This document shows, one piece after another, positions 1 through 24,715 of a stretch of DNA of 64,000 nucleotides. Source of the stretch: a virus; IMG/VR virus record IMGVR_UViG_3300029444_000365, positions 1 through 64,000 of that record, one strand, 5' to 3'. The notes under the pieces are model-generated. The model did not search any database. It saw only the letters and a program-made list of their open reading frames with translations, and was not told the origin of the DNA. How positions within the stretch are numbered: position 1 is the first letter of the stretch; each line of letters begins with the position of its first letter. Position numbers and translations under genes: made by a program.

Positions 1-114
1 ACGACATTTAAAACTCCAAGTGGTTTTATAATCGCTAAACTGATGATAAATAGCCTGTCCCATTGACAATTTGTAGGCATCTGTCTCCAATAAACTTGTA
101 ATAATCTGTTCCAT
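1..114 (-). CDS. pncB: nicotinate phosphoribosyltransferase, N-terminal 38 aa only (gene runs off window start)
   Basis: rc translation MEQIITSLLETDAYKLSMGQAIYHQFSDYKTTWSFKCR matches the conserved PncB N-terminus ([20 protein letters not shown]...FRCR); ATG 1 nt after stop of upstream ORF (TAATATG). Confidence 0.6.
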   Translation of the reverse strand, partial: MEQIITSLLETDAYKLSMGQAIYHQFSDYKTTWSFKCR

Positions 115-115
115 A

Positions 116-670
116 TTATTTTCCTTCTTTCTTGATTTGATTAAATATTGTTCTAATATCATATTCTCTGTTTTCGTACTCATAAAACAGATTAATATAC
201 TTATCAATAAAAGCTATGTCATTTGGATGCATTGCAATTGGCTTACTTTTCTTAGATTTCCACCATTTTAATTCCTTCTCAAAATTAAACGATTTACCAT
301 AATATGCTCTACCTGCTCCAAGATAATCACAAAACATTTCTTTTTTATACTTCATTGGCATTTCAATAGGATTTCCACCATTATCAAAATTGTCCTGCCA
401 ATATTCGTAATGGTGCTTGTTTCTTCCTTTATGGTGCATCCAAGCTGCTGACCAACCATTCTCTTTCTTGCAAGCATCTATTGGACTTGAAGTACCTTGA
501 TAATACTTAACACTCTCCCAAAATTCCGTTGGAGAAAATTTAGATAAATCATGTACTAACCCTTGAAATGGAATTCCCACTTTACAGCAATAGTAGAACA
601 CCCAATGTTTATGCGTACAGACTTTCTTAAAATGTCTGAAAGTATTAATGATATAATTCTTATACTTCAT
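116..670 (-). CDS. hypothetical Cys/His/Trp-rich protein (184 aa), translationally coupled between radical-SAM gene and pncB
   Basis: track ORF 116..745 trimmed to Met26 (MKYKNYIIN): GGAGAG RBS, ATG embedded in stop region of upstream gene (AATAATGAAGTATAA); no family recognised. Confidence 0.5.
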   Translation of the reverse strand: MKYKNYIINTFRHFKKVCTHKHWVFYYCCKVGIPFQGLVHDLSKFSPTEFWESVKYYQGTSSPIDACKKENGWSAAWMHHKGRNKHHYEYWQDNFDNGGNPIEMPMKYKKEMFCDYLGAGRAYYGKSFNFEKELKWWKSKKSKPIAMHPNDIAFIDKYINLFYEYENREYDIRTIFNQIKKEGK

Positions 671-1304
671 TATTCTCTCCAATCTTTCTATACTCCGTAT
701 ATACTTTGTTTTCACAGTAATACAAGTTATAATCACACTGTTCAATGTACCACCATAACTTCTGATGTCCTTCTTTAAGATATTCTCTACAATAATCTGT
801 TTCCTGATAGTGATTATCTACCATCTGTCTGAAACTCAACTCATCAATAATACCTGAGTTATGACAATATACTGCTATTCTGTTAATTAAATCCTCTGTG
901 AAATTTTCCGTGACCACAAATACAACTCTGACAATTTCGTTTTTTAATCGCTTGATGGATTTTAATTGTTTAAAATCATGTAAATGGTATACAACTCTGT
1001 CAAAATATGCATATGGTGCATCTTTTACATTTGGCATACTTGTATGTAGCTCTATCTGAACTCTATGTAAAGTTATATCGAAGAATTTCCTATACCACTC
1101 TACATTATTTTCTAAATTCCATAATGGATCTCCACCACCAGATATTGATACCCAATTACACTGATTTTTCTTAATCTCCTCTTCCAAAGAGTTCAATCCA
1201 TCAATCGTACTCTTTGGAATCTGAAGGTTATTATTCTTTACAATGCAATATGGACATGAATAGTGGCATCCAAAATTGGTTATCACACTCATGTACTTAT
1301 CCAT
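660..1304 (-). CDS. radical SAM enzyme (QueE/NrdG-activase-like, 214 aa)
   Basis: N-terminal CHYSCPYC (Cx3Cx2C) cluster, GGGDP (GGEP-like) SAM motif; B. subtilis-type QueE has similar CxYSCxWC. Confidence 0.75.
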   Translation of the reverse strand: MDKYMSVITNFGCHYSCPYCIVKNNNLQIPKSTIDGLNSLEEEIKKNQCNWVSISGGGDPLWNLENNVEWYRKFFDITLHRVQIELHTSMPNVKDAPYAYFDRVVYHLHDFKQLKSIKRLKNEIVRVVFVVTENFTEDLINRIAVYCHNSGIIDELSFRQMVDNHYQETDYCREYLKEGHQKLWWYIEQCDYNLYYCENKVYTEYRKIGENNEV

Positions 1305-1307
1305 ATT

Positions 1308-1817
1308 CTACTCTCCAATCACTTCAATCTGACAACTTTTCATAACTTCCATAGCCGCTTTATGTTTATCAGGTGTGACTCCTGCACAGCAACTTGCATC
1401 TACTGTGACATTAATAAATGGATAATCAGCTTTAATAATTAAAGCATTTGATACTACACAAATTTCGCTACAAAGACCAATAAGTTCTATATCATTGTTA
1501 AATCCAAAGTCAGTCCAATGTGTCCAACCAAAAGATTCCTTATTGATATATGCACAATTTGGAACTTCTAATCCGTCTGCAATCTGCCATCCATGAGTAT
1601 TGTAAATACAATGTTCAACTGGTAACTTGATACCTTCTGGTGTACTTAAATAGTTTTCATAATGTGTATCTCTTGTGAAAATAATTCTATCTCCACGATT
1701 ATAATATTCTTCAATTTTCTTCTTGACATTTGGAACAATTGCCTGTGCTTCCTTTGTACCGAGTGAGCCATCAATAAAATCATTCTGCATATCAATTACA
1801 ATTAATGTTTTGCTCAT
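1308..1817 (-). CDS. pncA: isochorismatase-family cysteine hydrolase, nicotinamidase (PncA)-like
   Basis: LIVIDMQNDF motif, catalytic Cys in GLCSEICV, DTH...H metal-site pattern typical of PncA; 169 aa. Confidence 0.65.
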   Translation of the reverse strand: MSKTLIVIDMQNDFIDGSLGTKEAQAIVPNVKKKIEEYYNRGDRIIFTRDTHYENYLSTPEGIKLPVEHCIYNTHGWQIADGLEVPNCAYINKESFGWTHWTDFGFNNDIELIGLCSEICVVSNALIIKADYPFINVTVDASCCAGVTPDKHKAAMEVMKSCQIEVIGE

Positions 1818-1951
1818 TTTGTTACCTCTTTTCTTTATTTTTATATGTATTTATTCTCTAAAAACCCAAAAGAAATTCCGCTTTCTTTCGGTCTTGGTTT
1901 TTATACAATATATAGTATTTCTTGCAATTCCTTGATACTATATATTGTATA

Positions 1952-2309
1952 TTATTTTAGTTTTCTACTGTCATAGATGTTTCCCATACCATAACCATGA
2001 GTGCAAGCCATTAATGTGAAACAAATACCCTCTATTCCAATAACTCTACCGCCAATAAGACTATTCTCACTTACAGTTCCAACTCTTTGTACATCGTTTT
2101 CATAAGTTAATTTTGAATAGAGGGTAAATTAAAATTTTTTGCCACCGTATACAAGTAACTGAACCCACCAGCATTACCTACAGGCTGTGCCAATAAACAC
2201 ATTGCTACATGATCTGAATCATATACTCTATTACCCTGACGAAATTGCTTTCCAAAATTTATTTCACCGACACCACCAACTAACTGTGGTTTATCACCAC
2301 AAGCAGAAC
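1952..2309 (-). pseudogene. degenerate C5-methyltransferase TRD-like remnant (two frames, no start codon)
   Basis: immediately after MTase stop; frames read QGNRVYDSDHVAMCLLAQPVGNAGGFSYLY and IGGRVIGIEGICFTLMACTHGYGMG, i.e. two copies of the Q(G/S)xR(V/I)Y..G..(P)TL.A.GGG...Y block that precedes motif IX in C5-MTases; interrupted by stops. Confidence 0.3.
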
Positions 2310-3818
2310 TTAATCCACTTGTGGCTGATGAAAATTTACCATCTTCTCATCTGTACAAATATATGTATTGTCATACTGAGCCTTATATAAATGCTCAATC
2401 AACAAAGAGATGCAAGTTGTCACTATACTGTTACCGCTTTGTTTATATCCCTGAGTATCAGACATTCCAACTGCTTTACAGTTCTCATAATCAATATCAT
2501 CGAATCCCATGAGCCTGTGGCACTCTTTTGGCGTGAGCTTCCTCACAACTCTTAAATTGTCTCTTTCAACTTTTGGTTCTGTATTACCGCCACCACAAGT
2601 ATGCATAGCTGGTGCAATTCCATCTTCGCTATATACTCTGCGAGACTGTTCATGCATTCTCTGAAACTTTTCGCTGCATAAATCAGCAATATGTATTGGT
2701 TCGTTTGAGTCGGCAAGAATCTGTTTTGGCTGTTTATAATCGGTTGCCACTAAAGTACCCATTACTGAATCCTGCTGATAAACTAAATCTCTGTTACCTA
2801 ATCTGGTACAATTTTGTCCAATTGTTGTTCCTACTACATTCTTTTCAAATTTTGGATCTGTTATCTGAAGTCTTTTCTGTACTTCATCAGATAAGAAATA
2901 TTTCTCCAGAACACTGCTATCTGTTTCTAATAAATCCTTTAATCTGATTCCTGTATCAAAAGGCTGTGGAAATTCAAAAGACTTGGTATCAATATCCTTA
3001 CGAATAGAGATACAGAAGATTCTATTTCGATTCTGTGGAATACCTGTATTCTTTGCATTGATTGTCTGATAATATGAGTTATATCCCAAGTTATCAAGCC
3101 GAATCAGCCAATCCTTAAAACTGTCAATATACTTCTTTGATACAAGAGCATCTACATTCTCCATAAGCAAATACTTTGGTAATGTATTATTCTCTTTTGC
3201 TTTTACAAGAAGTCTCTCAACTTCATACAATAAACCTGAACGAGTTGATTTAATGTTGTGGTTGCCACAATTAGGGCATGTATAACGAGTATCTACGTCT
3301 AATTCAGATGGATCATATTCACAACCACAATCATGACATGTCCACTTTAATCCTTCCTGCTTACCGGCGATTGACAAATCTGTACATGGAGTCGAGTATG
3401 TAAGTAAATCACTATATGGCAGTGACTCAATCTGCATCATATCGCCAAGATTATGTGAAATATGGTCTGCTAACCAATATTTCTCAATACCTTTTGCCTT
3501 GTTCTTCTTTCGTGAAAGCTTCTCCCAATCATACGGAACATCTTTCTTAAAATCATATCCAAGTCTCTTATCTGTAAGCTGTTTTACCATTTCTTCTTTA
3601 CTTGGATAATCTTCATAATTTTCAATCATCTCATTAGTTAATCCACAATGAATTGCAGCATAACTAACTACTACTTCTTTGTCTAAATCTGCTGTTGCAA
3701 TCATATTTGCATTGAAGAGATGAGTATTATCAATTCCCTTCATCTGCGCACCAATACCACTGCAAAGCTCAATTACACTTAACTCACAATAATTATTTTT
3801 TTCTTTATTCTCTGTCAA
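2310..3818 (-). CDS. DNA (cytosine-5)-methyltransferase with internal zinc-ribbon insert
   Basis: motif I ELCSGIGAQ, motif IV TPCTDLSIAG (PC), ENV, QNRNRIF, TRD block SRRVYSEDGIAPAMHTCGGG, motif IX RKLTPKECHRLMGF, motif X QSGNSIV; insert CHDCGC..CPNCG. Confidence 0.85.
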   Translation of the reverse strand: MTENKEKNNYCELSVIELCSGIGAQMKGIDNTHLFNANMIATADLDKEVVVSYAAIHCGLTNEMIENYEDYPSKEEMVKQLTDKRLGYDFKKDVPYDWEKLSRKKNKAKGIEKYWLADHISHNLGDMMQIESLPYSDLLTYSTPCTDLSIAGKQEGLKWTCHDCGCEYDPSELDVDTRYTCPNCGNHNIKSTRSGLLYEVERLLVKAKENNTLPKYLLMENVDALVSKKYIDSFKDWLIRLDNLGYNSYYQTINAKNTGIPQNRNRIFCISIRKDIDTKSFEFPQPFDTGIRLKDLLETDSSVLEKYFLSDEVQKRLQITDPKFEKNVVGTTIGQNCTRLGNRDLVYQQDSVMGTLVATDYKQPKQILADSNEPIHIADLCSEKFQRMHEQSRRVYSEDGIAPAMHTCGGGNTEPKVERDNLRVVRKLTPKECHRLMGFDDIDYENCKAVGMSDTQGYKQSGNSIVTTCISLLIEHLYKAQYDNTYICTDEKMVNFHQPQVD

Positions 3819-4005
3819 AATCCTTTAATCTACAGAGATTGCGCAATCATTTATCCTAGAATTTACTGTTAATTCCTTTCTTCTTAATTATTTTATTGTA
3901 AAATCCTATGGAATTTGCACGTCTGCAAAAACCATAAGAAAAAAATATTTCATTTTACTTTATTTTTGGAAACACTTGAACGAATGTACAAGTTAAGAAA
4001 TATTC

Positions 4006-4380
4006 TCACTGATTTTCATTAATCAGCATATCTTCCAGTTTATAAATTTCATCTTTTAGAGATCTAATTCTGGTTCTAACCAATTTATTAAATCCCCATA
4101 CAGCTTCCTCGTATGTATCAGCAAAGAATCTCGCATATATAGTTACACCATTCTTTTTCAAATCTTTACCATTTGCTTTATATTCATAGAAATATTTATC
4201 TTCTTTGATTCTCCCCTTTACGGGCTTACACATAAGATTTAATGCTCTCTCATCTTCCTTGTATGCAAAAGCCCAAAAATCTTTATTATAATGTGTTCCA
4301 TCATCAATGTATTGTAAATCATTAAAGATATTTCTATATATACCATTATATCTTGCATCTATATTGTTACAATAAATCAT
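4006..4380 (-). CDS. hypothetical protein (124 aa)
   Basis: ORF in co-directional array; no motif recognised. Confidence 0.5.
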   Translation of the reverse strand: MIYCNNIDARYNGIYRNIFNDLQYIDDGTHYNKDFWAFAYKEDERALNLMCKPVKGRIKEDKYFYEYKANGKDLKKNGVTIYARFFADTYEEAVWGFNKLVRTRIRSLKDEIYKLEDMLINENQ

Positions 4381-4415
4381 TTTCTTACCTCGCTTTGCTT
4401 GGAAAATTTGGCTGA

Positions 4416-4712
4416 TCAGCCTTTGAATAGAATCTCTATTTGAAATTTCTTTAATTCATCTTGAATCATCTTCTGTATATCTTCTTTGTCAAAAGATATA
4501 TTTGCAACTGGAATAATATTTGCATTTTGATTAACATCGCCAACAAGAGCATTATCAAATGCCTCTAAAAACATTTCTGCAATTTCTTTTTCATAGTTGC
4601 CACACATTCCATCGTAGTTAATATCTGCAATTACTCTCGAAAAGAAATCTTTGAACTTATCAGCGATAAAATCTTTCTCATACCCTATTGGAATATCAAT
4701 TGTTAATTTCAT
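4416..4712 (-). CDS. hypothetical protein (98 aa)
   Basis: ORF in co-directional array. Confidence 0.5.
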   Translation of the reverse strand: MKLTIDIPIGYEKDFIADKFKDFFSRVIADINYDGMCGNYEKEIAEMFLEAFDNALVGDVNQNANIIPVANISFDKEDIQKMIQDELKKFQIEILFKG

Positions 4713-4726
4713 TCTTTTATCTCACC

Positions 4727-5161
4727 TTACTTCCCAAATGGATTCTCCATAATACAATGGTCAACCATATCTTTAAATGCAAAAGGTGAATCAATCACTC
4801 TATTTGAATATCTGAAACGCTTTAAAAACTCAAGTACCTCATGTGCATCTCTATGTGATAATGGAATAAATGATACATACTCTGGATGACCTTTAATGCA
4901 TACAACCGCCCAAGAATGGTCATCAGAACAAAAACCAACATCCGTTCCAACATCTACCATCGAGTTCATCATCTTGTGACAATCATCAACCAATTTATAA
5001 GAATCTTCATATGCAATAGTTGCATCAGACAACCGTATATTGGCATATTCGCATCTTCTTCTTGCGTTATTGTATGATTTTTTAGCTGCTTCCACTTGAA
5101 ATAAATCATCTTCTAATAACCAATGTCTCAATTTATCTCGTATTTTATCCTTTAATTTCAC
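4727..5161 (-). CDS. hypothetical protein (144 aa)
   Basis: ORF in co-directional array, adjacent to macro gene. Confidence 0.5.
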   Translation of the reverse strand: MKLKDKIRDKLRHWLLEDDLFQVEAAKKSYNNARRRCEYANIRLSDATIAYEDSYKLVDDCHKMMNSMVDVGTDVGFCSDDHSWAVVCIKGHPEYVSFIPLSHRDAHEVLEFLKRFRYSNRVIDSPFAFKDMVDHCIMENPFGK

Positions 5162-5167
5162 ACTCTC

Positions 5168-5611
5168 TCACCTCTTACATACCAAAATCTCAACATCTGT
5201 ATCCGCAAAAATGTTTTTAATCTGTTCAGAGACATCATTCCAGTTCAATCTATCTAAGCCACAACCAATTACAGGCATTGCAATCTTCTTGATATTATTC
5301 TCCAAACAAATCTGTTTCATCTTTTCAAGTGCAAGTCTCATTGTAATTGTTGTTGGTTTGTGAAAATATCTCTCTTTTGTAATAAGATTTAATACCCTAT
5401 CTTCTAATAGACAATCACCACCAATCCTCTTATGAGTATACCGGTCAAAATAATATGGATATTTTGTCAGCAACCTTCTCTTCATATCAAACCTTTTATT
5501 GAACTCAACTACAATTCCTTTACCCATTCCAAAATCTGCACTGATACAATGTGCTAAATAATAATCTTCTGGTACTGTAAACAAGTCTTTATTTTCTTCT
5601 CTATATTTCAC
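5168..5611 (-). CDS. macro domain protein (ADP-ribose / ADP-ribose-1-phosphate / O-acetyl-ADP-ribose processing family)
   Basis: 147 aa, HCISADFGMGKGIVVEF...AMPVIGCGLDRL pattern typical of macro/Appr-1-p processing domains. Confidence 0.7.
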   Translation of the reverse strand: MKYREENKDLFTVPEDYYLAHCISADFGMGKGIVVEFNKRFDMKRRLLTKYPYYFDRYTHKRIGGDCLLEDRVLNLITKERYFHKPTTITMRLALEKMKQICLENNIKKIAMPVIGCGLDRLNWNDVSEQIKNIFADTDVEILVCKR

Positions 5612-5832
5612 TATTTCACCTCGCTTACCACTTTTATCTTACATTCGATTTCTACAACTTCTAGCTGCCTATCAGCGTTATAACGTCTTGACTTGAATCT
5701 TCTAACCGCATTCTCAGCAGTTTTTCTTGTTTCCCAATATTTGTGTCGTGGGTTTGTAAGATTACTTAGTAATTTTCCTGTTAATTTATCCATTACACCA
5801 TATAATGTAAATTCATTTTCCATCTCTTTCAC
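5611..5832 (-). CDS. hypothetical protein (73 aa)
   Basis: ORF, start overlaps macro gene stop. Confidence 0.45.
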   Translation of the reverse strand: MKEMENEFTLYGVMDKLTGKLLSNLTNPRHKYWETRKTAENAVRRFKSRRYNADRQLEVVEIECKIKVVSEVK

Positions 5833-5837
5833 CTCAC

Positions 5838-6038
5838 TTATTCTCTATATGGTTCAGGACATTTCTGCCACGCAACCACATCTACGGTGCTACCACTTGG
5901 TAAAACATCCCATATCCAATTTCCCTTTGGATATTCATATCTATCAGTTTGTCTTACCTGTCTCCCAAAAGATGTTTCTATTGTTACCAAATACCTTCCT
6001 TTTTTCTGTGGTGGATTTTTAGTTCCCCATTTTGCCAT
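5838..6038 (-). CDS. hypothetical protein (66 aa)
   Basis: ORF in array. Confidence 0.45.
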   Translation of the reverse strand: MAKWGTKNPPQKKGRYLVTIETSFGRQVRQTDRYEYPKGNWIWDVLPSGSTVDVVAWQKCPEPYRE

Positions 6039-6048
6039 TTATTTCACC

Positions 6049-6789
6049 TCACATCCATTTATCAATCTCGCTAAACACATTGCCTAGCGAATCAACAATC
6101 GTCAGATCCGTATCTTCATTCATTAACACTTGAATTTTTTCCCTATTGATAATAACCAAATGCCTACCACTGAAATACGAAATATAATTCGCTGCTGGAT
6201 AAACTTTTAATGAAGTGCCACCAATAATCAACATTTCAGCATCTCGAATGGCTCTGATTGCCCTATTTACCGCATCATTAGGAAGATTTTCTCCATATAA
6301 AGTTACGTCAGGTCTAATCAGACCACCACATTCACACTTTGGGATAGCTTCTTTAGTGTTAAACAAGAAATCTGAATGATATTCCATTTTACATTTACTA
6401 CAATAATTCCTCTGAGTAGTTCCATGAATTTCAAATACATTCTTACTGCCAGCTTTTTGATGAAGCCCATCAATGTTCTGTGTAACAATAGCCTTCAACT
6501 TACCTATTTCTTCCATCTTAGCAAGTACCTTATGAGTAATATTTGGCTCAATATTTCTTGTATCCATCTTCTGACGATAGAACTCATAGAATACCTTTGG
6601 ATTGTTATATAAGCATTCTCGACTCAAAAGATACTCTGGCTCGTATCTATCAAACTGAACGTCATGCTGATTATATAACCCATCCTTAGAACGAAAGTCT
6701 GGAATACCACTTTCAGTAGATACACCTGCTCCACCAAAGAATACAATATTATTTGATTCTTCTATATATTCTCTTAATTTTTCGTACAT
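6049..6789 (-). CDS. SIR2-family NAD-dependent protein deacylase (sirtuin)
   Basis: GAGVSTESGIPDFRS, QNIDGLH, two CxxC zinc pairs (CSKC..CECG), GTS motif; 246 aa. Confidence 0.85.
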   Translation of the reverse strand: MYEKLREYIEESNNIVFFGGAGVSTESGIPDFRSKDGLYNQHDVQFDRYEPEYLLSRECLYNNPKVFYEFYRQKMDTRNIEPNITHKVLAKMEEIGKLKAIVTQNIDGLHQKAGSKNVFEIHGTTQRNYCSKCKMEYHSDFLFNTKEAIPKCECGGLIRPDVTLYGENLPNDAVNRAIRAIRDAEMLIIGGTSLKVYPAANYISYFSGRHLVIINREKIQVLMNEDTDLTIVDSLGNVFSEIDKWM

Positions 6790-6799
6790 AGTTCTTACC

Positions 6800-7051
6800 T
6801 CACTCTATCATTTCAACTTTAATTCTAAATTTTGTTGTTTCTATATGTTCGCTTTCTTGATAAGGACGATTATAATCAAAGTGCTGATGTTTAACAGTCG
6901 CAATCAAGTGAGCATCATTGCCAGAAACAAATTTCGTATCTGTCTCATAAGTATCTTCTGAACCATCACCAAGTTTAGAGTCTGTACAATATATCTGATT
7001 TGCGTCTAATGCATCTTGAATAATTCTGTAAATTTCTCCTGTATTATACAT
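6800..7051 (-). CDS. hypothetical protein (83 aa)
   Basis: ORF in array. Confidence 0.45.
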   Translation of the reverse strand: MYNTGEIYRIIQDALDANQIYCTDSKLGDGSEDTYETDTKFVSGNDAHLIATVKHQHFDYNRPYQESEHIETTKFRIKVEMIE

Positions 7052-7061
7052 AGCTACTCCT

Positions 7062-8450
7062 TTAATACTCTATCCAACCATCTGTAATACCAGTCATCCA
7101 ATAAATAAGATCTTCTCTATCATTTTTTAATCTTCCATCTATTACACGAGTTAAGATTTCATTGAGCCAGTATCCAACTTCTTTTCCACTTTTAATGAGC
7201 ATTGTATCCATTACATCTTTTCCATTAACTGCTAAATCCTTTAGAGAAAAACATTCATCGTCCTGTAAAACTTCTTCCAAAATATATCCGATATTGTCAA
7301 TCTTCTGTAATCTTGTTTCCTGATTAATGTCTGCTTGTGCTTTAATATCAGCTCTACGAACATTTAATAACCTTCTGAACTGTTCTTCTCCAATTTTATT
7401 AAGCCATCTCTTGACATATTTCTTCCCCATCTCAAAAGTTGTATCATGATAATAAACAAGCTGCACTACTTTTTCTCTTGTATCATTATCAAAACGAAGT
7501 CTTTTCATAATTGTATCAGTCATATCAGCACTGACTCTTCCATGACCTTTAAAATGTCTAATACCATCTTCTCCATCCTGATAACAATGTGGTTTTCCTA
7601 TGTCATGAAAGAACACCGCTAATGATGTAATTAAATCTATTGAATTTAAGTCGGGTTCACAATCACATTCATAAGCTTGTACTGCATGTACTGTATGATT
7701 CCATACATCATAAATGTGATATGGATTATTCTGTTGAAAGCCAAGCATATCTTTAATTTCAGGAATGAACAACGAGAATACTTCACGGAATAATCCTATC
7801 TGTATATAAAACTCGCTTGATAATGCAATCTTACAGAACTCACTGTTGATTCTCTCAATAGATATATTCTCTAAATTCTTATACATTTTATGAATATTAA
7901 AACTCACATCAGAATCAACCACAAATCCCAGTTGTGAAGCAAACCGAATAGCACGTAAAATTCTTAAAGCATCTTCCGAAAATCTATCCTCTGCTCTACC
8001 AACACATCTGATTTTATAATGCTCAATATCTTCCATACCATTAAACGGATTTACAAGACCAACTTCATCATTGTATGCCATCGCATTGATTGTAAAATCT
8101 CTACGCTTCAAATCTTCTTTAAGACTTCGTGTAAATGTTACGCTATCAGGTCTACGACTATCTGAGTAATTACCGTCAATTCTGTAAGTGGTGCATTCAT
8201 ATCCTTCACCGTCAATTACAATGGTAATAGTTCCATGTTGTAAACCAGTTTCAATAATTCTCTTGTCCTTGAATACTTCCATCATTTCATCTGGTGTGGC
8301 AGAAGTTGTAATGTCGTAATCGTGAATTGGTCTGCCAAGAATACTATCTCTCACTGCACCACCACATAAAAATGCCTCATATCCATTATTCTGTAAAGTA
8401 TGAATAATTTCATTTGCACCAGATGGAATTTCAATTTTCAATTTCTTCAT
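7062..8450 (-). CDS. cca: CCA-adding tRNA nucleotidyltransferase with C-terminal HD domain
   Basis: GGAVRD..DxD head motif (LCGGAVRDSILGRPIHDYDITT), RRDFTINA, HD motif FFHDIGK; 462 aa. Confidence 0.85.
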   Translation of the reverse strand: MKKLKIEIPSGANEIIHTLQNNGYEAFLCGGAVRDSILGRPIHDYDITTSATPDEMMEVFKDKRIIETGLQHGTITIVIDGEGYECTTYRIDGNYSDSRRPDSVTFTRSLKEDLKRRDFTINAMAYNDEVGLVNPFNGMEDIEHYKIRCVGRAEDRFSEDALRILRAIRFASQLGFVVDSDVSFNIHKMYKNLENISIERINSEFCKIALSSEFYIQIGLFREVFSLFIPEIKDMLGFQQNNPYHIYDVWNHTVHAVQAYECDCEPDLNSIDLITSLAVFFHDIGKPHCYQDGEDGIRHFKGHGRVSADMTDTIMKRLRFDNDTREKVVQLVYYHDTTFEMGKKYVKRWLNKIGEEQFRRLLNVRRADIKAQADINQETRLQKIDNIGYILEEVLQDDECFSLKDLAVNGKDVMDTMLIKSGKEVGYWLNEILTRVIDGRLKNDREDLIYWMTGITDGWIEY

Positions 8451-8487
8451 TCAAATTCACCTCAATTTTTGGTATATTTATAAAATA

Positions 8488-9042
8488 TCACTTATTCGTT
8501 ATCATATCCAAAAACAACAAATCATCTTTCTTCAATGTGATATCATAACCTTTCCATTCTTCCATTAGCCCTCTTATATCAAATTTATGCGGAACAATAA
8601 TTGCATAGCCGTGAGGAGTCTTATGTACCTCTATCTCTAATAATGGAATTTCCGAATACATAGCTATCTCATGGACAAAATCATTCATCAATAACTCATC
8701 ATCCACATCAAAATCAAATAACCACTTGCCATCATCTCTGTTCTGCACTTGCAGTGCAACTGAAGCCAATGTGTGATTGAGACGTGTCATACTCAGTTTA
8801 TCTCTCAGTAGTCGGATAATAAATTCTTCTCTGATTTTATCTTCATTCCTTGAATTGACCGACCTGTATAATCTTGTCTGTTCACCAGGAACTCCTTTGG
8901 CTGCAAAACTCTTAAATTCTTCAATTATTTTGTCTTCATTCTCTTTATATTCAAGGATTGTTTCAATTCGCCCCTTGAAGTTTGGAACATCTTTATTATC
9001 CTTGTTACGAGAACGAATTAAATATACATATAAATTTGACAT
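8488..9042 (-). CDS. hypothetical protein (184 aa); weak 2H-phosphoesterase-like HxT x2 (NHTL, HKTP)
   Basis: track ORF trimmed to MSNLYVYLI start (AAGGAG RBS, 5 nt after Tpt1 stop); two HxT motifs only, weak. Confidence 0.5.
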   Translation of the reverse strand: MSNLYVYLIRSRNKDNKDVPNFKGRIETILEYKENEDKIIEEFKSFAAKGVPGEQTRLYRSVNSRNEDKIREEFIIRLLRDKLSMTRLNHTLASVALQVQNRDDGKWLFDFDVDDELLMNDFVHEIAMYSEIPLLEIEVHKTPHGYAIIVPHKFDIRGLMEEWKGYDITLKKDDLLFLDMITNK

Positions 9043-9047
9043 TGTAT

Positions 9048-9611
9048 TTATTCTCCTTCTAAATAACAGATTGGTACTTCTTTTGTAAGCCATACACCAT
9101 TTTGAGATAAAAAGAATTTATATCCGTCATTATACATATCTTTTGCTCGAACCTTATAAATAAACGGTTCTCCATGTCTACTGCCAACATTTGTTGCTGT
9201 TTCAATATCTTTTGATAGATGAACATATAAACGGCTCTTAGAGATTAATCCTTGTTTGTTGATTGAAGAACAATATTTGACACCTGTTCCATGATATAAA
9301 ATATCTGGTGGCATACACTCTTTTAATTCTACATCAACTTTTATAGAATGACCTTGATTTGCTCTTATAAGCGTCTTTTCTCGATTAAATGAATATCTCT
9401 GTTTAGAATCTTCTTCTACAATTTTCTCAAGCATTTTCATTGTAATCGTCTGAGTTTTATTGATTCCTTTTAATAGATCTGACACGTTAGCCCAACCATG
9501 TTTGTCTAATGTGATACCGATAACATCAGGTCTGTGTCTAAGAATTAATGCTATGTATTTGCTTAAATTATTTTGCTCTTTATTCGTCATAATGTTATCT
9601 CCATTCTCCAA
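9048..9611 (-). CDS. kptA: RNA 2'-phosphotransferase KptA/Tpt1 (NAD-dependent)
   Basis: LSKYIALILRHRP, HGT, RLYVHLS motifs; 187 aa. Confidence 0.8.
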   Translation of the reverse strand: MENGDNIMTNKEQNNLSKYIALILRHRPDVIGITLDKHGWANVSDLLKGINKTQTITMKMLEKIVEEDSKQRYSFNREKTLIRANQGHSIKVDVELKECMPPDILYHGTGVKYCSSINKQGLISKSRLYVHLSKDIETATNVGSRHGEPFIYKVRAKDMYNDGYKFFLSQNGVWLTKEVPICYLEGE

Positions 9612-9831
9612 TATACTCAGAACATTCTTTTTTGAATTTTTCCAATATATGTATTAAGCTATCTATTTCATAAGAATCCTTAAATGTTATTTCAATTATT
9701 TCAGGCTTAGATATATCAATATTGTCAGTAGTGTAGGGCAATGGTTTCATAAAGCAATCAAATCTGACGTTCAACCCTTTATGTGTCAATCTTATTTGAT
9801 TGACATTTTCTTTATTTCCAACAACCTTCAA
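9595..9831 (-). CDS. hypothetical protein (78 aa)
   Basis: ORF overlapping Tpt1 start region. Confidence 0.45.
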   Translation of the reverse strand: MKVVGNKENVNQIRLTHKGLNVRFDCFMKPLPYTTDNIDISKPEIIEITFKDSYEIDSLIHILEKFKKECSEYIGEWR

Positions 9832-9948
9832 ATAGATTTCACCTCCAAAATTCCATAAGAAATGTGCGTTTCTTTCTAATGCAAAATATATACCACATAT
9901 AGTATATATTGCTTATTTTTAATACTATATATGGTATATCCATAACAA

Positions 9949-10338
9949 TTATTCACTTAATTCTGCAAGTGCCTTATCCAGATCCTCATCAGACATATTT
10001 TCAAGTGCCGCATCCTGTCTCTTAGCTTTGATTTCAAGCAATCTCTGTCTCATCTCAGCATTTTTCTTAGCATCTTCTCTCTTCTTTTTCTCATCCAGCT
10101 TCACGCTAACAATATACTTAACAATTTCAATCTTGTTAGAAATCTCCTCGTCTTCCTTTGACTTAGTATTCAGAAGACTCTCTTCCTCAGACTTCTTTAC
10201 TTCCGCATTGAGTGTCTTGAATACTGAGTCCAGATTTGTGAGAGATAAATCCCACAAATCAATTACATTAATCATTCCTCTGAATGGGAACTGATAGTTT
10301 GCTCTTGTTGCATTAATAAATAATTCGTTGTTTGTCAT
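9949..10338 (-). CDS. hypothetical protein (129 aa), charged C-terminal coiled coil
   Basis: ORF in array. Confidence 0.5.
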   Translation of the reverse strand: MTNNELFINATRANYQFPFRGMINVIDLWDLSLTNLDSVFKTLNAEVKKSEEESLLNTKSKEDEEISNKIEIVKYIVSVKLDEKKKREDAKKNAEMRQRLLEIKAKRQDAALENMSDEDLDKALAELSE

Positions 10339-10356
10339 AATAATCTCCTTTTCTAA

Positions 10357-12414
10357 TTAAAACTTAATCTTCATTACACGCTCTGTTGCGCCCTTAACCT
10401 TAACAACTAAATCTGCTCTCTTTGTCATAGAGAATCCAATTCCTGAAAGCTGATCATCAGTATCTTCTACATGGCACTTAGCACCTAAAGCCTCAAATAC
10501 TCTCTTGTGCTTTTCAAGGTCACTCTTTAAGAACTCATTGTAATAGCCATTAGGATCTTCGCTATTTACACAATCCTTCAGGAAAAAGAATAAATGTCTA
10601 TGACCAATTCCATCCTGCTCATCAAAATAATTTGGACTATAACTAATTACTGATACAGGAACAAACTGATTAGTGCTTACACCCCAAATCTCACGACTTG
10701 AGATAGATGAACTTCCAGATAACTTTTCCTTAATTGAGAAGTTGCCATTCTTGTCAAGTGTTACCTCTGCCACCTGAACTTTCTCACCAGTTCTCATAGG
10801 ATTGCTATAATCAAATGAATAAATCTCTCCATTGAACTCAACTTCTGCTCTAAATCCATGTCTTACTGCACCTGAATACTGATGTACAAAGAACTTATAA
10901 ACACCTGGTTTCATTCTTGACAGGTCTTCCCAAGTAATATTCTCTACTGCAACCTTTCTATCTGGATGAATAATATCAACGTCTAACTGACCACCCATTC
11001 TTGAAACACTTGGCTTTCTACAATTACTAAAGAAAATTTCATTCTCATCTGGCTCAATACAATGTGCATCAAGGTCGTAATTATCATGACCATCTTCGTT
11101 CCACTGAATAGAAAATCTGAGTACACCGTCAACATTACCGCCAGCAGCTTTTACATTCTGTTTCATATCAGAATCAGTAATGTTTCCTGAATAAGCCCAA
11201 GACAATCCATTATTCCACTTGAACATTGTCTTAGCGTCTGGATTAACAGGTGCAACCATAGAAACAAAATTCTTCTCATGCTTATTCTCTACAAAAGCTT
11301 CAATTTCTTTTGCGGTTGGAAGTACCTTATCAATGAAATCCTGTGCTGAAATCTCTTCAACCTTAGAAAACTTCTTAGGACTTACAGCAACATCCTTTTC
11401 CATCTGACCAAAAATATCATCTGCACCAACCATTCTTCTTGCAGCACTCTTATTTGAGAACAGTACATTATTTACAGTAATATCATTCAGATTAGCAAAT
11501 CTTCTCTGTAATGAATCCATATATCCAAGCTCTGTAATGGTCTTCTTTGCATCCTCAAGCATTTTCTTTGTAAAAATAGCCTTTGGTCTTTTATAGTTGC
11601 TCGGTGCTGTAATCTGCTCATACTTCTTAACTGCTGTGTCAAGATCCATATCCTCACTTACATTAATAAGAAGTGTTCCAATAGAATGATTTCTAATTCT
11701 ACCGATAGCCATACCTGCTGTTACCGACTTCTCCCAAGCATATAAATCCTTTTCAGTATCAGAAGTCAGCTTATCATATTCTTTCTTATACTTCTTGAAC
11801 TCTGTGAGTACACCTTTCCACTCTTCGCCCTTGTAAAGTGTATTTGAATTGATAAGTTCAAGAATTGTATCGAGTGCATCCATAGTAATTTCATCAAGAG
11901 AACGCTTAAATACATTTCTTGTGTCTCTGAACTGTCCCTTAACTTCCTCGTTTGAACGGCTACTTCTATTTACGAACTTGCTTGGAAGTTCTAAGAAAAA
12001 GTGATCCCACTGATGAGACTTTCCATTGATTTCCTCAAAATTAAAATCTGTACCAATCTTAGGGAACTTAGTTGTATAAATATCTGTAACTGTATGAGCT
12101 TTTACGAAAGCATCAAGTGCATCACATACTGGCTGATATGTTGTATCACCAAGATTCAGTTCCCAAATCGTATGAATCTGGTTATCCTTGATAGTTACAG
12201 CAGAACCAATATTCTTAATAAACTGTCTACAACAACTACAATCATGTTCTCTACGCTCTCTGAAAATCTCATTTGTACCAGCAGGGAAGCTATCAAGATA
12301 TGTATTCCATAATTCATCCTTATCTACATTTACCTCAAATAAATGTGTTGCCTCTTTCTGCATTTCATCGAAGTGCTTCTGTAATGCCTTCTTAAATTTC
12401 ATAAATCCATCCAT
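10357..12414 (-). CDS. large hypothetical protein (685 aa)
   Basis: long uninterrupted ORF; CSCC cluster near N-terminus; no family recognised. Confidence 0.6.
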   Translation of the reverse strand: MDGFMKFKKALQKHFDEMQKEATHLFEVNVDKDELWNTYLDSFPAGTNEIFRERREHDCSCCRQFIKNIGSAVTIKDNQIHTIWELNLGDTTYQPVCDALDAFVKAHTVTDIYTTKFPKIGTDFNFEEINGKSHQWDHFFLELPSKFVNRSSRSNEEVKGQFRDTRNVFKRSLDEITMDALDTILELINSNTLYKGEEWKGVLTEFKKYKKEYDKLTSDTEKDLYAWEKSVTAGMAIGRIRNHSIGTLLINVSEDMDLDTAVKKYEQITAPSNYKRPKAIFTKKMLEDAKKTITELGYMDSLQRRFANLNDITVNNVLFSNKSAARRMVGADDIFGQMEKDVAVSPKKFSKVEEISAQDFIDKVLPTAKEIEAFVENKHEKNFVSMVAPVNPDAKTMFKWNNGLSWAYSGNITDSDMKQNVKAAGGNVDGVLRFSIQWNEDGHDNYDLDAHCIEPDENEIFFSNCRKPSVSRMGGQLDVDIIHPDRKVAVENITWEDLSRMKPGVYKFFVHQYSGAVRHGFRAEVEFNGEIYSFDYSNPMRTGEKVQVAEVTLDKNGNFSIKEKLSGSSSISSREIWGVSTNQFVPVSVISYSPNYFDEQDGIGHRHLFFFLKDCVNSEDPNGYYNEFLKSDLEKHKRVFEALGAKCHVEDTDDQLSGIGFSMTKRADLVVKVKGATERVMKIKF

Positions 12415-12651: not shown

Positions 12652-14235
12652 CTACTCAATAATCTTAAATGATACATCTGTTCTTCTATTCATTGCACGA
12701 TGTTCCTCTGTATCATTATCTATTACAGGATTGCTTGAACCGTTACCAACAGTTACGATTCTATCTGCTGAAATACCATTCATAATGAAGTAATTCTTAA
12801 CAGCTTCCGCTCTCTGGGCTGATAACTTCTGATTGTACTCGTCCTGCGGATCTGAATTTGGATTAGGATCTGTATTACCAGCAATCTCAATAATTGCTCC
12901 ATCGAGTACATTTGCAATATCAATAAATTTATTAAGCTCCTCGGATGCGGCGGCTGAATCTGTAAACTGGGCTGTATTCTTATTAAATGTTACCGAAGCA
13001 GATCCACTTAATAATGCCTCCGTATCCTGTACTTCCTGCTTATTATCATCTGTTACCTTTACTGTGTCTGTGTTAGATACATCTGTAGCATTAAACTTGT
13101 CTGCAATGGCATTAATATATGTATCATCAAAAATTGTATCTACTAAATCAGCATTTACAGTCTCACCAATTGATGTCCAAACATTGCACATATCTGAATA
13201 AATAGTCTTTGCTGTGCCATTTAATAAATCAGAATTGTCTTTCCAAGTTGTGAGTTTTGCAGTAGCTGCACTTCCTGCAATATCTTCATCAGATGCAGTA
13301 TTGAACATTGGCATTACTTCTCTGATTGCTGTAAACTCATTGTCGTACATATCGGATGCTTCAAGAGAACCCTGAACAAATTTCTCTACTATCTCTGGAT
13401 ATGCCTCTGCAAAATTCTTATCAAATAAAATTCCATCCATTACAAGATTTGTTGAGCTTGCTGTACTAAATAATACATGTGCATCTGTCATATTCTGTGC
13501 CTGTGTTAAATAAGGCTCCCATGTAGCAGCTACATCAACTTGTCCTGCAAAAAATGCTTTTGCTGTATCATCTGCTGTTGAGAATAATACAAGATTATCA
13601 ATAATATCAGATTTCTCATCGTCTGATAAATCAGAATTATTAACAAACCAAATAACTAATGTCTGTGCCTCTGAAAACTCAGGGACACCAATTTTTGCAC
13701 CAACTAAATCTTTTACTGAATTAATTGATGATTTGGCAATAATACCATCACCACCATTTGAGTAGTTTGTAATATATGGCATAATTACATCTTCACCAGC
13801 TTCTGTAAACTTTTGTGATAAAAATGCTGTTCTATTGATTGTATAGCCTGCCGCATTTAAATCACCTTTAATAAGGGCGTTGCTTGACTGTGTAGCATCA
13901 TTAATAACATTGATATTTACATTGATACCGAGTTTTCCATAAATAGAATCTGGCTGTGTTGTAAGTCCACCATTAGCGTCAATAATAGATTTCCAGCCAA
14001 TCCACTCATCTAATGAAAGATTAATAGTTCCGTCACTATTAGCTTTCTTTTTATTAGAACTAGAAGATGTTGTGCCAGTTACTTTGTTCCCTGCATTACT
14101 TATCGAAGTGTTACTCTTGGTTTTAATTAACCCTGTCTTTACACCAGCGAAAACACCACCACCAATTAATGCAATAACCAAAACCATAATTAAAATTTTT
14201 GAAGCTTTGGTAAGTCTAAATCTTTTTGTACTCAT
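12652..14235 (-). CDS. TM-anchored NMT1/SsuA-like substrate-binding protein fused to C-terminal OmpA-like peptidoglycan-binding domain
   Basis: N-terminal TM helix; SBP-like body; C-terminus AIIEIAGNTDPNPN...NQKLSAQRAEAVKNYF...NRRTDVSF matches OmpA/MotB C-domain consensus. Confidence 0.65.
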   Translation of the reverse strand: MSTKRFRLTKASKILIMVLVIALIGGGVFAGVKTGLIKTKSNTSISNAGNKVTGTTSSSSNKKKANSDGTINLSLDEWIGWKSIIDANGGLTTQPDSIYGKLGINVNINVINDATQSSNALIKGDLNAAGYTINRTAFLSQKFTEAGEDVIMPYITNYSNGGDGIIAKSSINSVKDLVGAKIGVPEFSEAQTLVIWFVNNSDLSDDEKSDIIDNLVLFSTADDTAKAFFAGQVDVAATWEPYLTQAQNMTDAHVLFSTASSTNLVMDGILFDKNFAEAYPEIVEKFVQGSLEASDMYDNEFTAIREVMPMFNTASDEDIAGSAATAKLTTWKDNSDLLNGTAKTIYSDMCNVWTSIGETVNADLVDTIFDDTYINAIADKFNATDVSNTDTVKVTDDNKQEVQDTEALLSGSASVTFNKNTAQFTDSAAASEELNKFIDIANVLDGAIIEIAGNTDPNPNSDPQDEYNQKLSAQRAEAVKNYFIMNGISADRIVTVGNGSSNPVIDNDTEEHRAMNRRTDVSFKIIE

Positions 14236-14250
14236 TCCATTCTCTCCTTA

Positions 14251-14988
14251 TTATTTGTTGTATTTTTTCTTTAAACTGTCTAAATAATCATTACTGCTAT
14301 TCTTTTTAGCTTCGACTTCTGCTTTTGCAAGTTTCGTAGACATCTTGTTATTATGTACTACTTTTGAACCCTCAACAATTGCATCTAAGTCTTTATTCTT
14401 ATCTCTGACAGAATCAAGAAGTTTATCAGTTGCAGTTACATTTTTTAACTCGTCCATATCATCATAGACTTCCTGTAACTGTTTCTTCACTTTCATATTC
14501 TCCACAACTTCCTTACTTTCTCTCTTTAATTTGCGGAGATTCTTTTCACACATTTCCTGTGCTTCTTTTGCAGTGTTAGCTGCGTCTTCATATGCTTTAA
14601 CTAATTCTGAATATCTCCTGATATCAGCCATAATCTCTTCTCTCTCATCAGCTTTTAACTGTGCTAACTCTATCTTATTTGCTTTTACAAGAGATTCACA
14701 TTCAGATTCGACCTTCTCAAGCTTTGCTTTGAGATTCTTCATATCTTTTTGTGCATTGCTTAATTTACCAGCAGCTACCTTGTAAGCATTATCCGCTTTG
14801 TTATAAGCGTCTTGTGCCTGATCAATTTTTTCACCATAAATAGCCTCCGCACCTTCTGGGGTTGTAGCCATATCTTTGATAAACAGTCTCGTAATTCCCG
14901 AAAATAATGTTCTTACTTCAGGAAATAAAATAAAAATCAAAATAATAACTGCAACTACCAAAATCACAATAAGTTTTCCAAGATCCAT
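14251..14988 (-). CDS. PspA/IM30-like coiled-coil protein with N-terminal TM helix
   Basis: TM helix then LFSGITRLFIKDM..PEGAEAIYGEKIDQAQ resembling PspA N-terminus; long coiled coil. Confidence 0.45.
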   Translation of the reverse strand: MDLGKLIVILVVAVIILIFILFPEVRTLFSGITRLFIKDMATTPEGAEAIYGEKIDQAQDAYNKADNAYKVAAGKLSNAQKDMKNLKAKLEKVESECESLVKANKIELAQLKADEREEIMADIRRYSELVKAYEDAANTAKEAQEMCEKNLRKLKRESKEVVENMKVKKQLQEVYDDMDELKNVTATDKLLDSVRDKNKDLDAIVEGSKVVHNNKMSTKLAKAEVEAKKNSSNDYLDSLKKKYNK

Positions 14989-15518: not shown

Positions 15519-15535
15519 TTTGTTTCCTCCTTAAA

Positions 15536-16886: not shown

Positions 16887-16985
16887 ATTCTCACCTCTTT
16901 CTATATCTATATTCTCTTTTTAATTTGGGAATTTTATTGAGCTGAATCACTCAGAAATTTTTTACAATGAAACGAAGTTTTCTTG

Positions 16986-17273: not shown

Positions 17274-17287
17274 TTGTTTCCTCTTAA

Positions 17288-17500: not shown

Positions 17501-17518
17501 ATAAATCTCCTTTCCAAT

Positions 17519-17725: not shown

Positions 17726-17766
17726 AATATTCGTATGTTCCTTTCAAAGTTATATATTTATTCTGC

Positions 17767-24588: not shown

Positions 24589-24715
24589 CGTTAGTGGATT
24601 AAACTATGGTAGAACTATAGCAGCTACACATTCTGCTCTTACAAGGCAATATGTATGTACAAAGAAACAAGTACCTTGCGTACTGCACTTACATCGGGTG
24701 TGATTCAGTGCATAA

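Follow-up and report, generated by a model that had tools for sequence, protein, structure and literature searches.

Among the phage-encoded pathways that rebuild nicotinamide adenine dinucleotide (NAD+), NARP1 (Adps and Namat, in NARP1-AP together with the Adpp macrodomain) is an experimentally validated anti-NADase pathway (bioRxiv 10.1101/2024.02.11.579819; PMC12774641). NARP1 and NARP2 were established by Osterman et al. in 2024, and in 2026 the Adpp macrodomain was added as an extension against aRES. NARP2 (Nampt and Nmnat) and NARP3 (PnuC and NadR) are phage salvage routes that start from nicotinamide or nicotinamide riboside and restore NAD+ against SIR2-type defences. In a survey of 668 gut jumbo phages, 174 were found to encode a complete salvage or Preiss-Handler pathway; a pncB-nadD-nadE cluster was shown, phage pncA was mentioned, and a counter-defence role was proposed without experiments (Li et al. 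2024, Microbiome, PMC11662467). Here we analyse a stretch of 64,000 nucleotides (the window; positions 1 to 64,000 of IMG/VR record IMGVR_UViG_3300029444_000365), which we infer to derive from an SPbeta-like, probably temperate phage of Lachnospiraceae with a genome of ~150-160 kb. Its positions 1-9611 consist of two adjoining parts, the start of an operon for NAD+ synthesis and a hypervariable accessory island. On balance, we favour the reading that the operon would be a self-sufficient, phage-run means of NAD+ replenishment, probably serving counter-defence, which stands beside independent accessory cassettes.

Like the NAD-jumbo phages (PMC11662467), the window phage is of gut origin and belongs to a lineage with clustered pncB, nadD and nadE genes and a complete predicted NAD+ synthesis pathway. 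Those phages were, however, selected to exceed 200 kb and their Kuafu clade was assigned to Bacteroidota, and the operon of the window phage differs from theirs by a fixed PncA gene and a DUF5662 gene of the HD fold, and by abutting a variable island. Similarly, NARP1 and NARP1-AP are phage operons for rebuilding NAD+, which occur in SPbeta-like phages, start from the products of NADases and sometimes have a macrodomain attached. In contrast, the route of the window phage would deamidate the pyridine first, take the AMP moiety from ATP via NadD rather than from ADP-ribose, and need four steps instead of two; no Adps or Namat homologue was found by tblastn in the window or in the near-identical contig L005. 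NARP2 and NARP3 are amidated routes via nicotinamide mononucleotide (NMN), whereas the present one would proceed via nicotinate, nicotinate mononucleotide (NaMN) and nicotinate adenine dinucleotide (NaAD) and require NadE, and neither Nampt, NadM, NadR nor PnuC appeared among the Pfam and NCBIfam matches of the window or among the genes listed for L005. The same four families in the same reaction order constitute the bacterial salvage pathway I (PncA-PncB-NadD-NadE), here phage-encoded as a compact operon. The PncB of this operon is of the ~400-aa PRK05321 type, as opposed to the ~480-aa type that is common in Firmicutes, and PncA is a short form of 169 aa.

The operon and its predicted pathway

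All long reading frames from position 1 to ~52 kb of the window lie on the minus strand, the GC skew is negative throughout, and no plus-strand frame within positions 1-9611 has family support. The gene order of the operon is PncA, an optional radical-SAM-like gene, DUF5662, PncB, NadD and NadE, and the window holds its promoter-proximal part:

1308-1817, minus strand: PncA-type nicotinamidase, 169 aa, first gene of the operon (Pfam Isochorismatase, PF00857, 83 bits).
660-1304, minus strand: radical-SAM-like protein, 214 aa, with a CxxxCxxC motif, an optional operon insert (weak match to Pfam Radical_SAM, 20 bits; phrog_17662, 241 bits).
116-670, minus strand: DUF5662 protein, 184 aa, a predicted metal-dependent phosphohydrolase of the HD superfamily, conserved between PncA and PncB.
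1-114, minus strand: first 38 codons of PncB (translation MEQIITSLLETDAYKLSMGQ...), the gene running past the window edge.
1866-1891, minus strand: terminator-like hairpin between a methyltransferase gene and PncA (consensus match only).

An earlier annotation from the letters of this stretch, hereafter the sequence-only reading, had placed five genes around NAD+, namely PncA, the N-terminus of PncB, a sirtuin, a macrodomain and Tpt1. All five were recovered where it had put them, on the minus strand, and family models as well as active-site alignments agree with the assignments. The closest solved relative of PncA is the nicotinamidase of Pyrococcus horikoshii (1ILW, E 8.6e-15, full length). 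The triad D9/K93/C116 aligns with D10/K94/C133 of the P. horikoshii enzyme and is kept in 125-128 of 130 distinct phage homologues (41-100 % identity), and the metal site D50-x-H52...H69, which aligns with D52/H54/H71 of 1ILW, is kept in all 130. This Asp-x-His...His metal site sets nicotinamidases apart from other hydrolases of the isochorismatase fold. Against the NCBIfam equivalog NF008623, which was built on the 213-aa E. coli-type nicotinamidase, the protein scores 29.5 bits, with a cutoff of 174, and aligns over its N-terminal 58 residues only. PncA is predicted to be a nicotinamidase, and by model score its identity is the weakest. In a public-assembly collection, 170 indexed blocks contain exactly this protein.

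The remaining operon was followed in contig L005, which shares 99.8 % identity with the window along 10.5 kb. There, PncB is complete with 402 aa and scores 408 bits against TIGR01514 (cutoff 270) and 484 bits against NF003704 (cutoff 379). Family searches proposed by the sequence-only reading for the two salvage genes hence came out in its favour, the isochorismatase-family frame matching both Pfam and a solved nicotinamidase and the PncB fragment being the N-terminus of a protein that passes TIGR01514. PncB, a NadD-like gene and NadE come next in L005, where their frames overlap or nearly abut, and likewise in each of the five further contigs compared. The NadD-like protein (208 aa in L005, overlapping PncB by 8 nt) reaches 99.9 bits against the equivalog TIGR00482, with a cutoff of 112. 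Its solved relatives are exclusively NaMN/NMN adenylyltransferases, the best of them all NaMN enzymes (E 2e-9, full length), and both nucleotidyltransferase motifs, (H/T)xxH and SxxxxR, can be aligned, GSFNPITNAH with GGTFDPPHYGH and TSSSLVR with VSSSLLR. NadE, likewise outside the window in L005, is a single-domain protein of 245 aa without a glutaminase domain (TIGR00552, 181 versus 64 bits). Both PncB and NadE therefore pass the NCBIfam equivalog cutoffs.

The route encoded by the operon is predicted to be deamidating (Preiss-Handler) salvage in which every step from nicotinamide to NAD+ is covered. PncA would hydrolyse nicotinamide to nicotinate, PncB would convert nicotinate to NaMN at the expense of phosphoribosyl pyrophosphate (PRPP), NadD would form NaAD with ATP, and NadE would complete NAD+ with ATP and NH3. 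The sequence-only reading had assumed that NadD and NadE of the host are needed; since the phage appears to encode every step, both genes directly following PncB in L005 as well as in 73-78 of the 80 relatives compared, this assumption turned out to be wrong.

Two genes of the operon were considered as further members of the pathway. The radical-SAM-like gene was dropped because only 6 of 28 loci that span the region carry it. DUF5662, which has an HD-GYP-like fold, might have supplied a missing NAD step, e.g. an ADP-ribose hydrolase feeding PRPP synthesis, and was rejected as a defining NAD component; elsewhere it adjoins thymidylate, folate and guanylate genes without NAD genes, so that a general role in nucleotide metabolism is equally likely.

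The gap upstream of PncA comprises 490 nt and holds the hairpin at 1866-1891, which suggests that the NAD operon is a separate transcription unit. Terminator-like sites in the region are not more numerous than expected from shuffled sequence, the same holds for the sites of a promoter scan, and Rfam returned no riboswitch or other RNA element in the region, the 490-nt gap included.

The sequence-only reading had further regarded a PncA/PncB variant of NAD+ reconstitution as not described. This does not stand, as pncB-nadD-nadE clusters and phage pncA were reported from gut jumbo phages in 2024 together with the idea of countering depletion (PMC11662467), and a survey of 2022 covered the joint presence of KptA, macro, sirtuin and NAD salvage genes in large phages (PMC9503650). 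That survey of the viral NAD+-ADP-ribose network, which covered KptA, macro, sirtuin, 2H and Nudix proteins, listed as synthesis enzymes only NadV, NadM and NadR (Iyer et al. 2022, PMC9503650). Also the isolated Sinorhizobium phage Phosso possesses an annotated NadE-PncB-NMNAT cluster, in which NadE, PncB, MutT, NMNAT and a hydrolase lie within 6 kb. PncB adjoins NadE in the 735-kb phage LR756501, and phage G has a PncA-like protein, NadE and a TARG1-like macrodomain. In the cultured jumbo phage Atu_ph07 of Agrobacterium (L007, 1512-3085 and 5959-7909), PncB is followed by an overlapping, unannotated 219-aa gene, and ~4 kb away a gene annotated as hypothetical, beside an annotated ADP-ribose pyrophosphatase, has a weak PncA-like match (28-30 % identity, E 3e-8).

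The neighbouring island and its conservation

Upstream of the operon, the order of transcription is DUF8224, p129, a small reading frame, Tpt1, a 184-aa protein, a CCA-adding enzyme, a small reading frame, the sirtuin, two small frames, the macrodomain, three small frames, a C5 methyltransferase, the gap and PncA. The main genes are:

10357-12414 and 9949-10338, minus strand: anchor genes DUF8224 (phrog_1735) and p129, which bound the island on its far side.
9048-9590, minus strand: Tpt1/KptA NAD-dependent RNA 2'-phosphotransferase, a variable cassette (NF002014, 245 versus 239 bits).
8488-9042, minus strand: 184-aa protein p184 (match to phrog_8839), usually beside Tpt1.
7062-8450, minus strand: CCA-adding tRNA nucleotidyltransferase with HD domain (NF009814, 318 versus 290 bits).
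6049-6789, minus strand: NAD-dependent protein deacylase of the CobB/Sir2Tm type, 246 aa, single domain, a variable cassette (Pfam SIR2, 192 bits).
5168-5611, minus strand: macrodomain of the TARG1/OARD1-DarG type, 147 aa, a variable cassette (Pfam Macro, only 22 bits).
2310-3818, minus strand: C5 cytosine DNA methyltransferase, a variable island gene (Pfam DNA_methylase, 171 bits).

The sirtuin scores 310 bits against the NCBIfam protein deacylase NF001752 (cutoff 221) and aligns with Sir2Tm (1YC5, E 1e-45), EIHG matching ELHG with the catalytic histidine and the four zinc cysteines (CxxC...CxC) being aligned. It was considered as a defence-type SIR2 NADase (Thoeris ThsA, DSR, SIR2-HerA, pAgo-SIR2), an assignment that was rejected as PADLOC models gave a partial match of 16.6 bits only. 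A SirTM-macro toxin-like pair was rejected likewise: the sirtuin scores as CobB-type, two frames intervene, and sirtuin and macrodomain are present together in one of the 28 spanning loci. The macrodomain aligns end to end with human TARG1/OARD1 (4J5R, E 1e-26), LITKERY with LITKKRA and GCGLDRL identically, and has equivalents of both catalytic residues, which we take to be K84 and D125 in TARG1 numbering; it scores 55 bits against the DarG model. Pfam PF14519, representing the Poa1p/Adpp type, was absent at E <= 0.01, and the 20 phage records with macrodomain matches (E <= 1e-3) include no Vibrio phage, the characterised Adpp being that of Vibrio phage Gary. By sequence, the macrodomain belongs to the TARG1/DarG clade, with no relationship to Poa1p/Adpp detectable in these searches. 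It stands alone, without the C-terminal domain of DarG and without a DarT context. Phages are known to carry mimics of antitoxins, DarG-like or NADAR, by which DarT is neutralised (PMC13309987, PMC11481870, PMC11825919).

The reading frame of Tpt1 extends from 9048 to 9611, and the likelier start is the ATG at 9590, which yields 180 aa. The protein aligns with 7KW8 (E 1e-45), including the R-H-R-R tetrad (LRHRP, IRANQGHS, SRLYVHLS). Its neighbourhood is one of RNA repair, as it lies beside the CCA-adding enzyme and RlaP takes its place in other genomes. In large phages, KptA is reported as part of NAD-dependent RNA-repair modules (PMC9503650), and the Tpt1 of the window, with its tetrad, similarly stands beside tRNA-repair genes; RNA ligase, 2H phosphoesterase and polynucleotide kinase were not seen in the window. 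The protein p184 is commoner than Tpt1 (19 of 28 loci), and its combination of DFDVDD and HKTPHGY recalls primase-polymerase motifs; its structure model is poor (pLDDT, the predicted local distance difference test score, 61) and fold matches were uninformative. At the place of the C5 methyltransferase, relatives have several alternative methyltransferase alleles. Directly after its stop, at 1960-2309 on the minus strand, out-of-frame stretches without a start resemble target-recognition and motif IX segments (...FRQGNRVYDSDHVAMCLLAQPVGNAGG...) and appear to be what is left of a multispecific methyltransferase as in the SPbeta group, or else a 3' end put out of frame by a frameshift.

For a comparison of relatives, a PncB scan of IMG/VR yielded 153 contigs, of which 80 (L009-L088) were taken with 10-kb flanks and scored for presence or absence by tblastn. 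Among these 80, PncA was found in 74, NadD in 73 and NadE in 78. As absence means only that a gene is not inside the fetched flank, further counts were limited to the 28 loci that span p129 to PncB. PncA, DUF5662 and NadD are present in 28/28 of these and NadE in 27/28, while the neighbouring genes vary: p184 occurs in 19/28, the CCA enzyme in 15/28, Tpt1 in 8/28, the radical-SAM-like gene and the macrodomain in 6/28 each, and SIR2 in 4/28. Tpt1, SIR2 and macrodomain (the consumers) occur all together in none of the 28; their pairs show no association (Fisher p >= 0.14), SIR2 and macrodomain co-occurring once and macrodomain and Tpt1 never. The synthesis operon is retained in relatives without any consumer, and the juxtaposition of all three is confined to the window genome and one near-identical contig.

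The sequence-only reading had joined consumers and recycling genes in one functional block. Given the presence and absence of the individual cassettes, this block resolves into a conserved synthesis operon abutting a variable island, with the three consumers as a rare draw from a pool. The idea that it keeps NAD+ available for the phage's own Tpt1 and sirtuin fares no better, in view of the lack of co-inheritance. The island from DUF8224-p129 to PncA is hypervariable, and single-gene cassettes are exchanged within it. Its pool comprises Tpt1, the CCA-adding enzyme, RlaP, sirtuin, macrodomain, DNA methyltransferases, a DHH phosphoesterase, a metallophosphoesterase and a GmrSD/DUF262-like protein. 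Clustering of the island reading frames identified a 307-aa DHH/DHHA1 phosphoesterase in 26 loci (L001 5781-6704, L019 4162-5085 and 24 others), the RlaP nucleotidyltransferase in 19 (L003 5108-6136) and a calcineurin-like metallophosphoesterase in 11 (L050 6470-7243), all standing where SIR2 or the macrodomain would be. This mix suggests an anti-defence and RNA-repair island.

Where PncB is 96-100 % identical (L009-L088), PncA is 56-100 % and NadE 57-100 % identical, and the variation of these alleles beside a near-constant PncB points to frequent recombination at the operon ends. Locus L072 lacks DUF5662 from its PncA-PncB-NadD-NadE operon, and an NAD-dependent DNA ligase (16097-18085) follows 5 kb downstream of NadE. 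In L078, a 474-aa Nudix-NrtR-WHD-adenylyltransferase fusion (6041-7465) replaces NadD; in L083 and L088, genes for a Nudix protein and for a macrodomain of the MacroD type come after PncB-NadE (L083 12036-12644, 14385-14861), and in L076 an RtcB RNA ligase (9517-10701) comes after NadE. The individual genes are all rare in phages: among 50,697 phage records, PncB was counted in 14, PncA in 9, this type of macrodomain in 20, SIR2 in 164, Tpt1 in 98 and NadE in 46.

A NARP1-type module in sister phages

A search of phage records with PncA identified phAss-1 (L008, OQ749652, 5998-10436), in which an annotated 'nicotinamidase' heads an operon with PRPS-like and NAMPT-like genes and NadE as the last gene. 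The gut contig MT835544 (L114), which has the DUF8224-p129 anchors in common with the window phage, carries at the same site (2542-8543) an RNA ligase, a PRPS-like (Adps-like) gene, a NAMPT-like (Namat-like) gene, a MacroD-type macrodomain, NadE and PncA; thus, the anchor pair p129-DUF8224 also precedes the NARP1-type module. Against 9W5X/9W5W, the structures of SPbetaL1 Namat (PMC12774641), the NAMPT-like protein of L114 reaches 445 bits (E 2e-132), as compared with ~188 bits against genuine NAMPTs. By these matches, sister phages carry a NARP1-type module where the window phage has PncB-NadD, which supports the likeness to phage NAD+-reconstitution counter-defences that the sequence-only reading had seen in the salvage genes.

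In SPbetaL1 Namat, Asp215 hydrogen-bonds nicotinamide, and the substitution D215A lowers the activity 8-fold. The validated Namats read G-T-D-T at this position; L114 has N-T-A-T and phAss-1 R-T-A-T. Throughout the clade of L114 (L115-L194, 80 IMG/VR loci, 52-99 % identity) the aspartate is absent, T/S-A/S-T being found instead in 80/80, and PncA and NadE both lie within 7 kb in 72/80 loci and PncB or NadD in 0/80. In the canonical Namat clade (80 loci, 50-66 % identity to 9W5X) the aspartate is kept in 80/80, and PncA or NadE occurs in 0/80. As both clades are monophyletic, this correlation may reflect few evolutionary events. Of the clamp residues for the use of ADP-ribose pyrophosphate (ADPR-PP), R40 and F392 are retained in L114 and Y396 is not.

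The simplest reading is that the sister module would be a nicotinate-dependent NARP1 that makes NaAD: PncA would provide nicotinate, Adps would form ADPR-PP, the altered Namat would join both to NaAD, and NadE would finish the synthesis. It might then be hypothesized that PncB plus NadD and Adps plus the Namat variant would be interchangeable modules from nicotinate to NaAD between PncA and NadE. In a literature search, no paper was found that mentions Namat or Adps together with NadE, and the predicted nicotinate-type NARP1, which lies outside the window, would be the most novel element of this analysis.

The phage and other features of the window

The phage origin asserted by the sequence-only reading is supported by a YonO-type RNA polymerase and by PHROG matches, which are strong for DUF8224, YonO, the radical-SAM protein and p184. 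The single-subunit polymerase (922 aa, 59985-62753, plus strand) is 44 % identical to YonO of SPbeta (phrog_8308, 821 bits), has a fold like that of eukaryotic RNA-dependent RNA polymerases, and places the element among SPbeta-like phages. The ribosome-binding sites are strong and of the GGAGG type. A contig of the isolate Eubacterium segne BX4 holds a DUF8224 copy of 92 % identity followed by p129 of 99 %, and DUF8224 relatives at 53-79 % identity reside mostly in Lachnospiraceae genomes. A Bacteroidota 'Kuafu' jumbo phage was considered and rejected on account of the strong Shine-Dalgarno sites, the matches to Lachnospiraceae genomes and the SPbeta YonO polymerase. IMG/VR contigs of the lineage cluster at ~140-162 kb (maximum 216 kb), and the distance between the operon and the contig ends is constant; longer contigs in the European Nucleotide Archive (ENA), of 272-373 kb, may contain host sequence as well. 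A nucleotide search with the 10-kb block gave no match in the 50,697 phage records, so that a close relative of the lineage is missing from the phage sequences on deposit. The lineage is among the most frequently assembled phages of human gut metagenomes, with a close PncB in the 153 IMG/VR contigs. Further features of the window are:

12652-16886, minus strand: ATP-binding cassette (ABC) importer consisting of binding protein, PspA-like protein, ATPase and permease.
19172-19246 and 24715-24788 (minus strand) and 63616-63690 (plus strand): two tRNA-Gln(UUG) and one tRNA-Met(CAU).
21816-23264: GmrSD-N/DUF262-like protein.
26282-27310: tyrosine recombinase, in the middle of the co-directional gene block.
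53622-54599: DUF3825 protein, located where the coding strand changes (near 52-53 kb).
55533-56651: GIY-YIG endonuclease gene, upstream of the YonO-type polymerase.

The tRNA-bearing genome also encodes the CCA-adding enzyme. The binding protein of the importer, of 527 aa, is a fusion of an NMT1/THI5-like domain with a peptidoglycan-binding domain that is OmpA-like. A PDB search with it returned mainly the OmpA-like domain and one weak match (E 2e-4) to a nitrate-transport binding protein, which gives no clue to the substrate; by analogy to PnuC of NARP3, a pyridine precursor is conceivable.

Function of the operon and alternative explanations

In our favoured reading, the operon would be expressed in infection and rebuild NAD+ from nicotinamide freed by NADase immune effectors or by any NAD consumer, as a functional analogue of NARP1, NARP2 and NARP3. 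Sirtuin, macrodomain and Tpt1 would work independently of it, the macrodomain probably by reversing ADP-ribosylation of the DarT type or clearing ADP-ribose derivatives, and Tpt1 probably as a partner of the CCA enzyme in RNA repair. The strongest argument that the operon serves counter-defence is that sister phages hold a NARP1-type module at the equivalent position. In addition, the genes of the adjoining island are of kinds typically carried for counter-defence or repair, the PncA and NadE alleles are mosaic beside a 96-100 % identical PncB, and the same role has been proposed for phage Preiss-Handler clusters (Li et al. 2024, PMC11662467).

Several points weigh against it. Phage PncA-PncB-NadD-NadE operons, this one included, are known from sequence alone; the NadD-like protein stays under the NCBIfam trusted cutoff (99.9 versus 112 bits) and PncA far under that of the E. 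coli-type equivalog (29.5 versus 174 bits), and NadD and NadE of the exact genome, both off the window, are deduced from the 99.8 % identical contig. The route would cost three ATP equivalents plus PRPP and be slower than the known two-step routes of phages. NadD and NadE duplicate essential host genes, and a simple boost of flux would fit as well. Finally, the phage looks temperate, as it encodes a tyrosine recombinase (26282-27310) and is found as a copy in the genome of an isolate, which leaves room for lysogenic conversion by vitamin B3 scavenging.

A bolder form of the counter-defence reading, which we put forward tentatively and hold to be somewhat less probable than its negation, is that Firmicutes phages possess, in PncA-PncB-NadD-NadE, a fourth counter-defence by NAD+ reconstitution, in this case a deamidating one ('NARP4'). 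Its design would be modular, with PncA and NadE bracketing either PncB plus NadD, the module of the window, which would use PRPP and ATP, or Adps plus the Namat variant, the module of the sister phages and phAss-1, which would use ADP-ribose and ATP.

Lysogenic conversion, in which the operon would be a prophage 'moron' that provides a Lachnospiraceae lysogen with additional scavenging of nicotinamide or niacin, perhaps together with the ABC importer at 12.6-16.9 kb, appears unlikely. The tyrosine recombinase, the near-identical region in the assembly of the E. segne BX4 isolate, the extreme prevalence of the lineage in human gut samples and the transporter genes 11 kb away (NMT1-like/OmpA-like binding protein, ATPase and permease) would be in line with it. 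However, NadD and NadE are near-universal, essential genes in bacteria and hence would bring a lysogen no new capability, and the operon is part of a 50-kb co-directional block with tRNA, tRNA-repair and DNA methyltransferase genes, as is typical of the lytic cycle. The NARP1-type module at the same site in sister phages is equally at odds with lysogenic conversion, and the transporter is not beside the DUF8224 anchor in the four relatives with flank beyond it (L002, L003, L004 and L006).

Rather improbable, too, is a general support of replication unconnected to immunity, in which the NAD+ flux would be raised for NAD-dependent phage enzymes such as DNA ligase or against host shut-off. L072 with its NAD-dependent DNA ligase 5 kb downstream of NadE fits this explanation, as does the presence of LigA in 90 of 174 NAD-jumbo phages (Li et al. 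2024, PMC11662467); yet a LigA homologue was not found in the 64-kb window or in L005, and the positional replacement by a NARP1-type module, a user of ADP-ribose and thus of a specific NADase product, points to an immune context.

Very doubtful is an integrated NAD economy as one unit, in which sirtuin and Tpt1 would release nicotinamide and ADP-ribose derivatives, the macrodomain would clear O-acetyl-ADP-ribose or ADP-ribose-1''-phosphate, and PncA and PncB would recycle the pyridine: the chemistry is coherent, as TARG1/OARD1 is an O-acyl-ADP-ribose deacylase, the sirtuin is of the deacylase type, and nicotinamide inhibits sirtuins and is removed by PncA, as established for yeast Pnc1-Sir2, and all genes are co-directional within 10 kb, but the consumers are not co-inherited in the 28 spanning loci (Fisher p >= 0.14), relatives without consumers still keep the synthesis operon, and the macrodomain is not detectably related to the Poa1p-type Adpp phosphatases.

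Implications

The concept of a phage-encoded Preiss-Handler pathway is already known from genome surveys; what the present analysis adds, as judged from sequence comparison, is a very abundant member in a different phage lineage and host phylum. NAD+ depletion is among the commonest outcomes of bacterial immunity, and the proven phage pathways that rebuild NAD+ are three, all of amidated chemistry. The lineage described here is a concrete and abundant candidate for a fourth such pathway in Firmicutes, with the full predicted deamidating route in one compact operon. The two chemically different ways from nicotinate to NaAD within the same flanking PncA and NadE would, moreover, yield a testable prediction on the substrate specificity of Namat. 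As others have noted, a phage-borne PncA of gut bacteria may also affect the niacin metabolism of the host.

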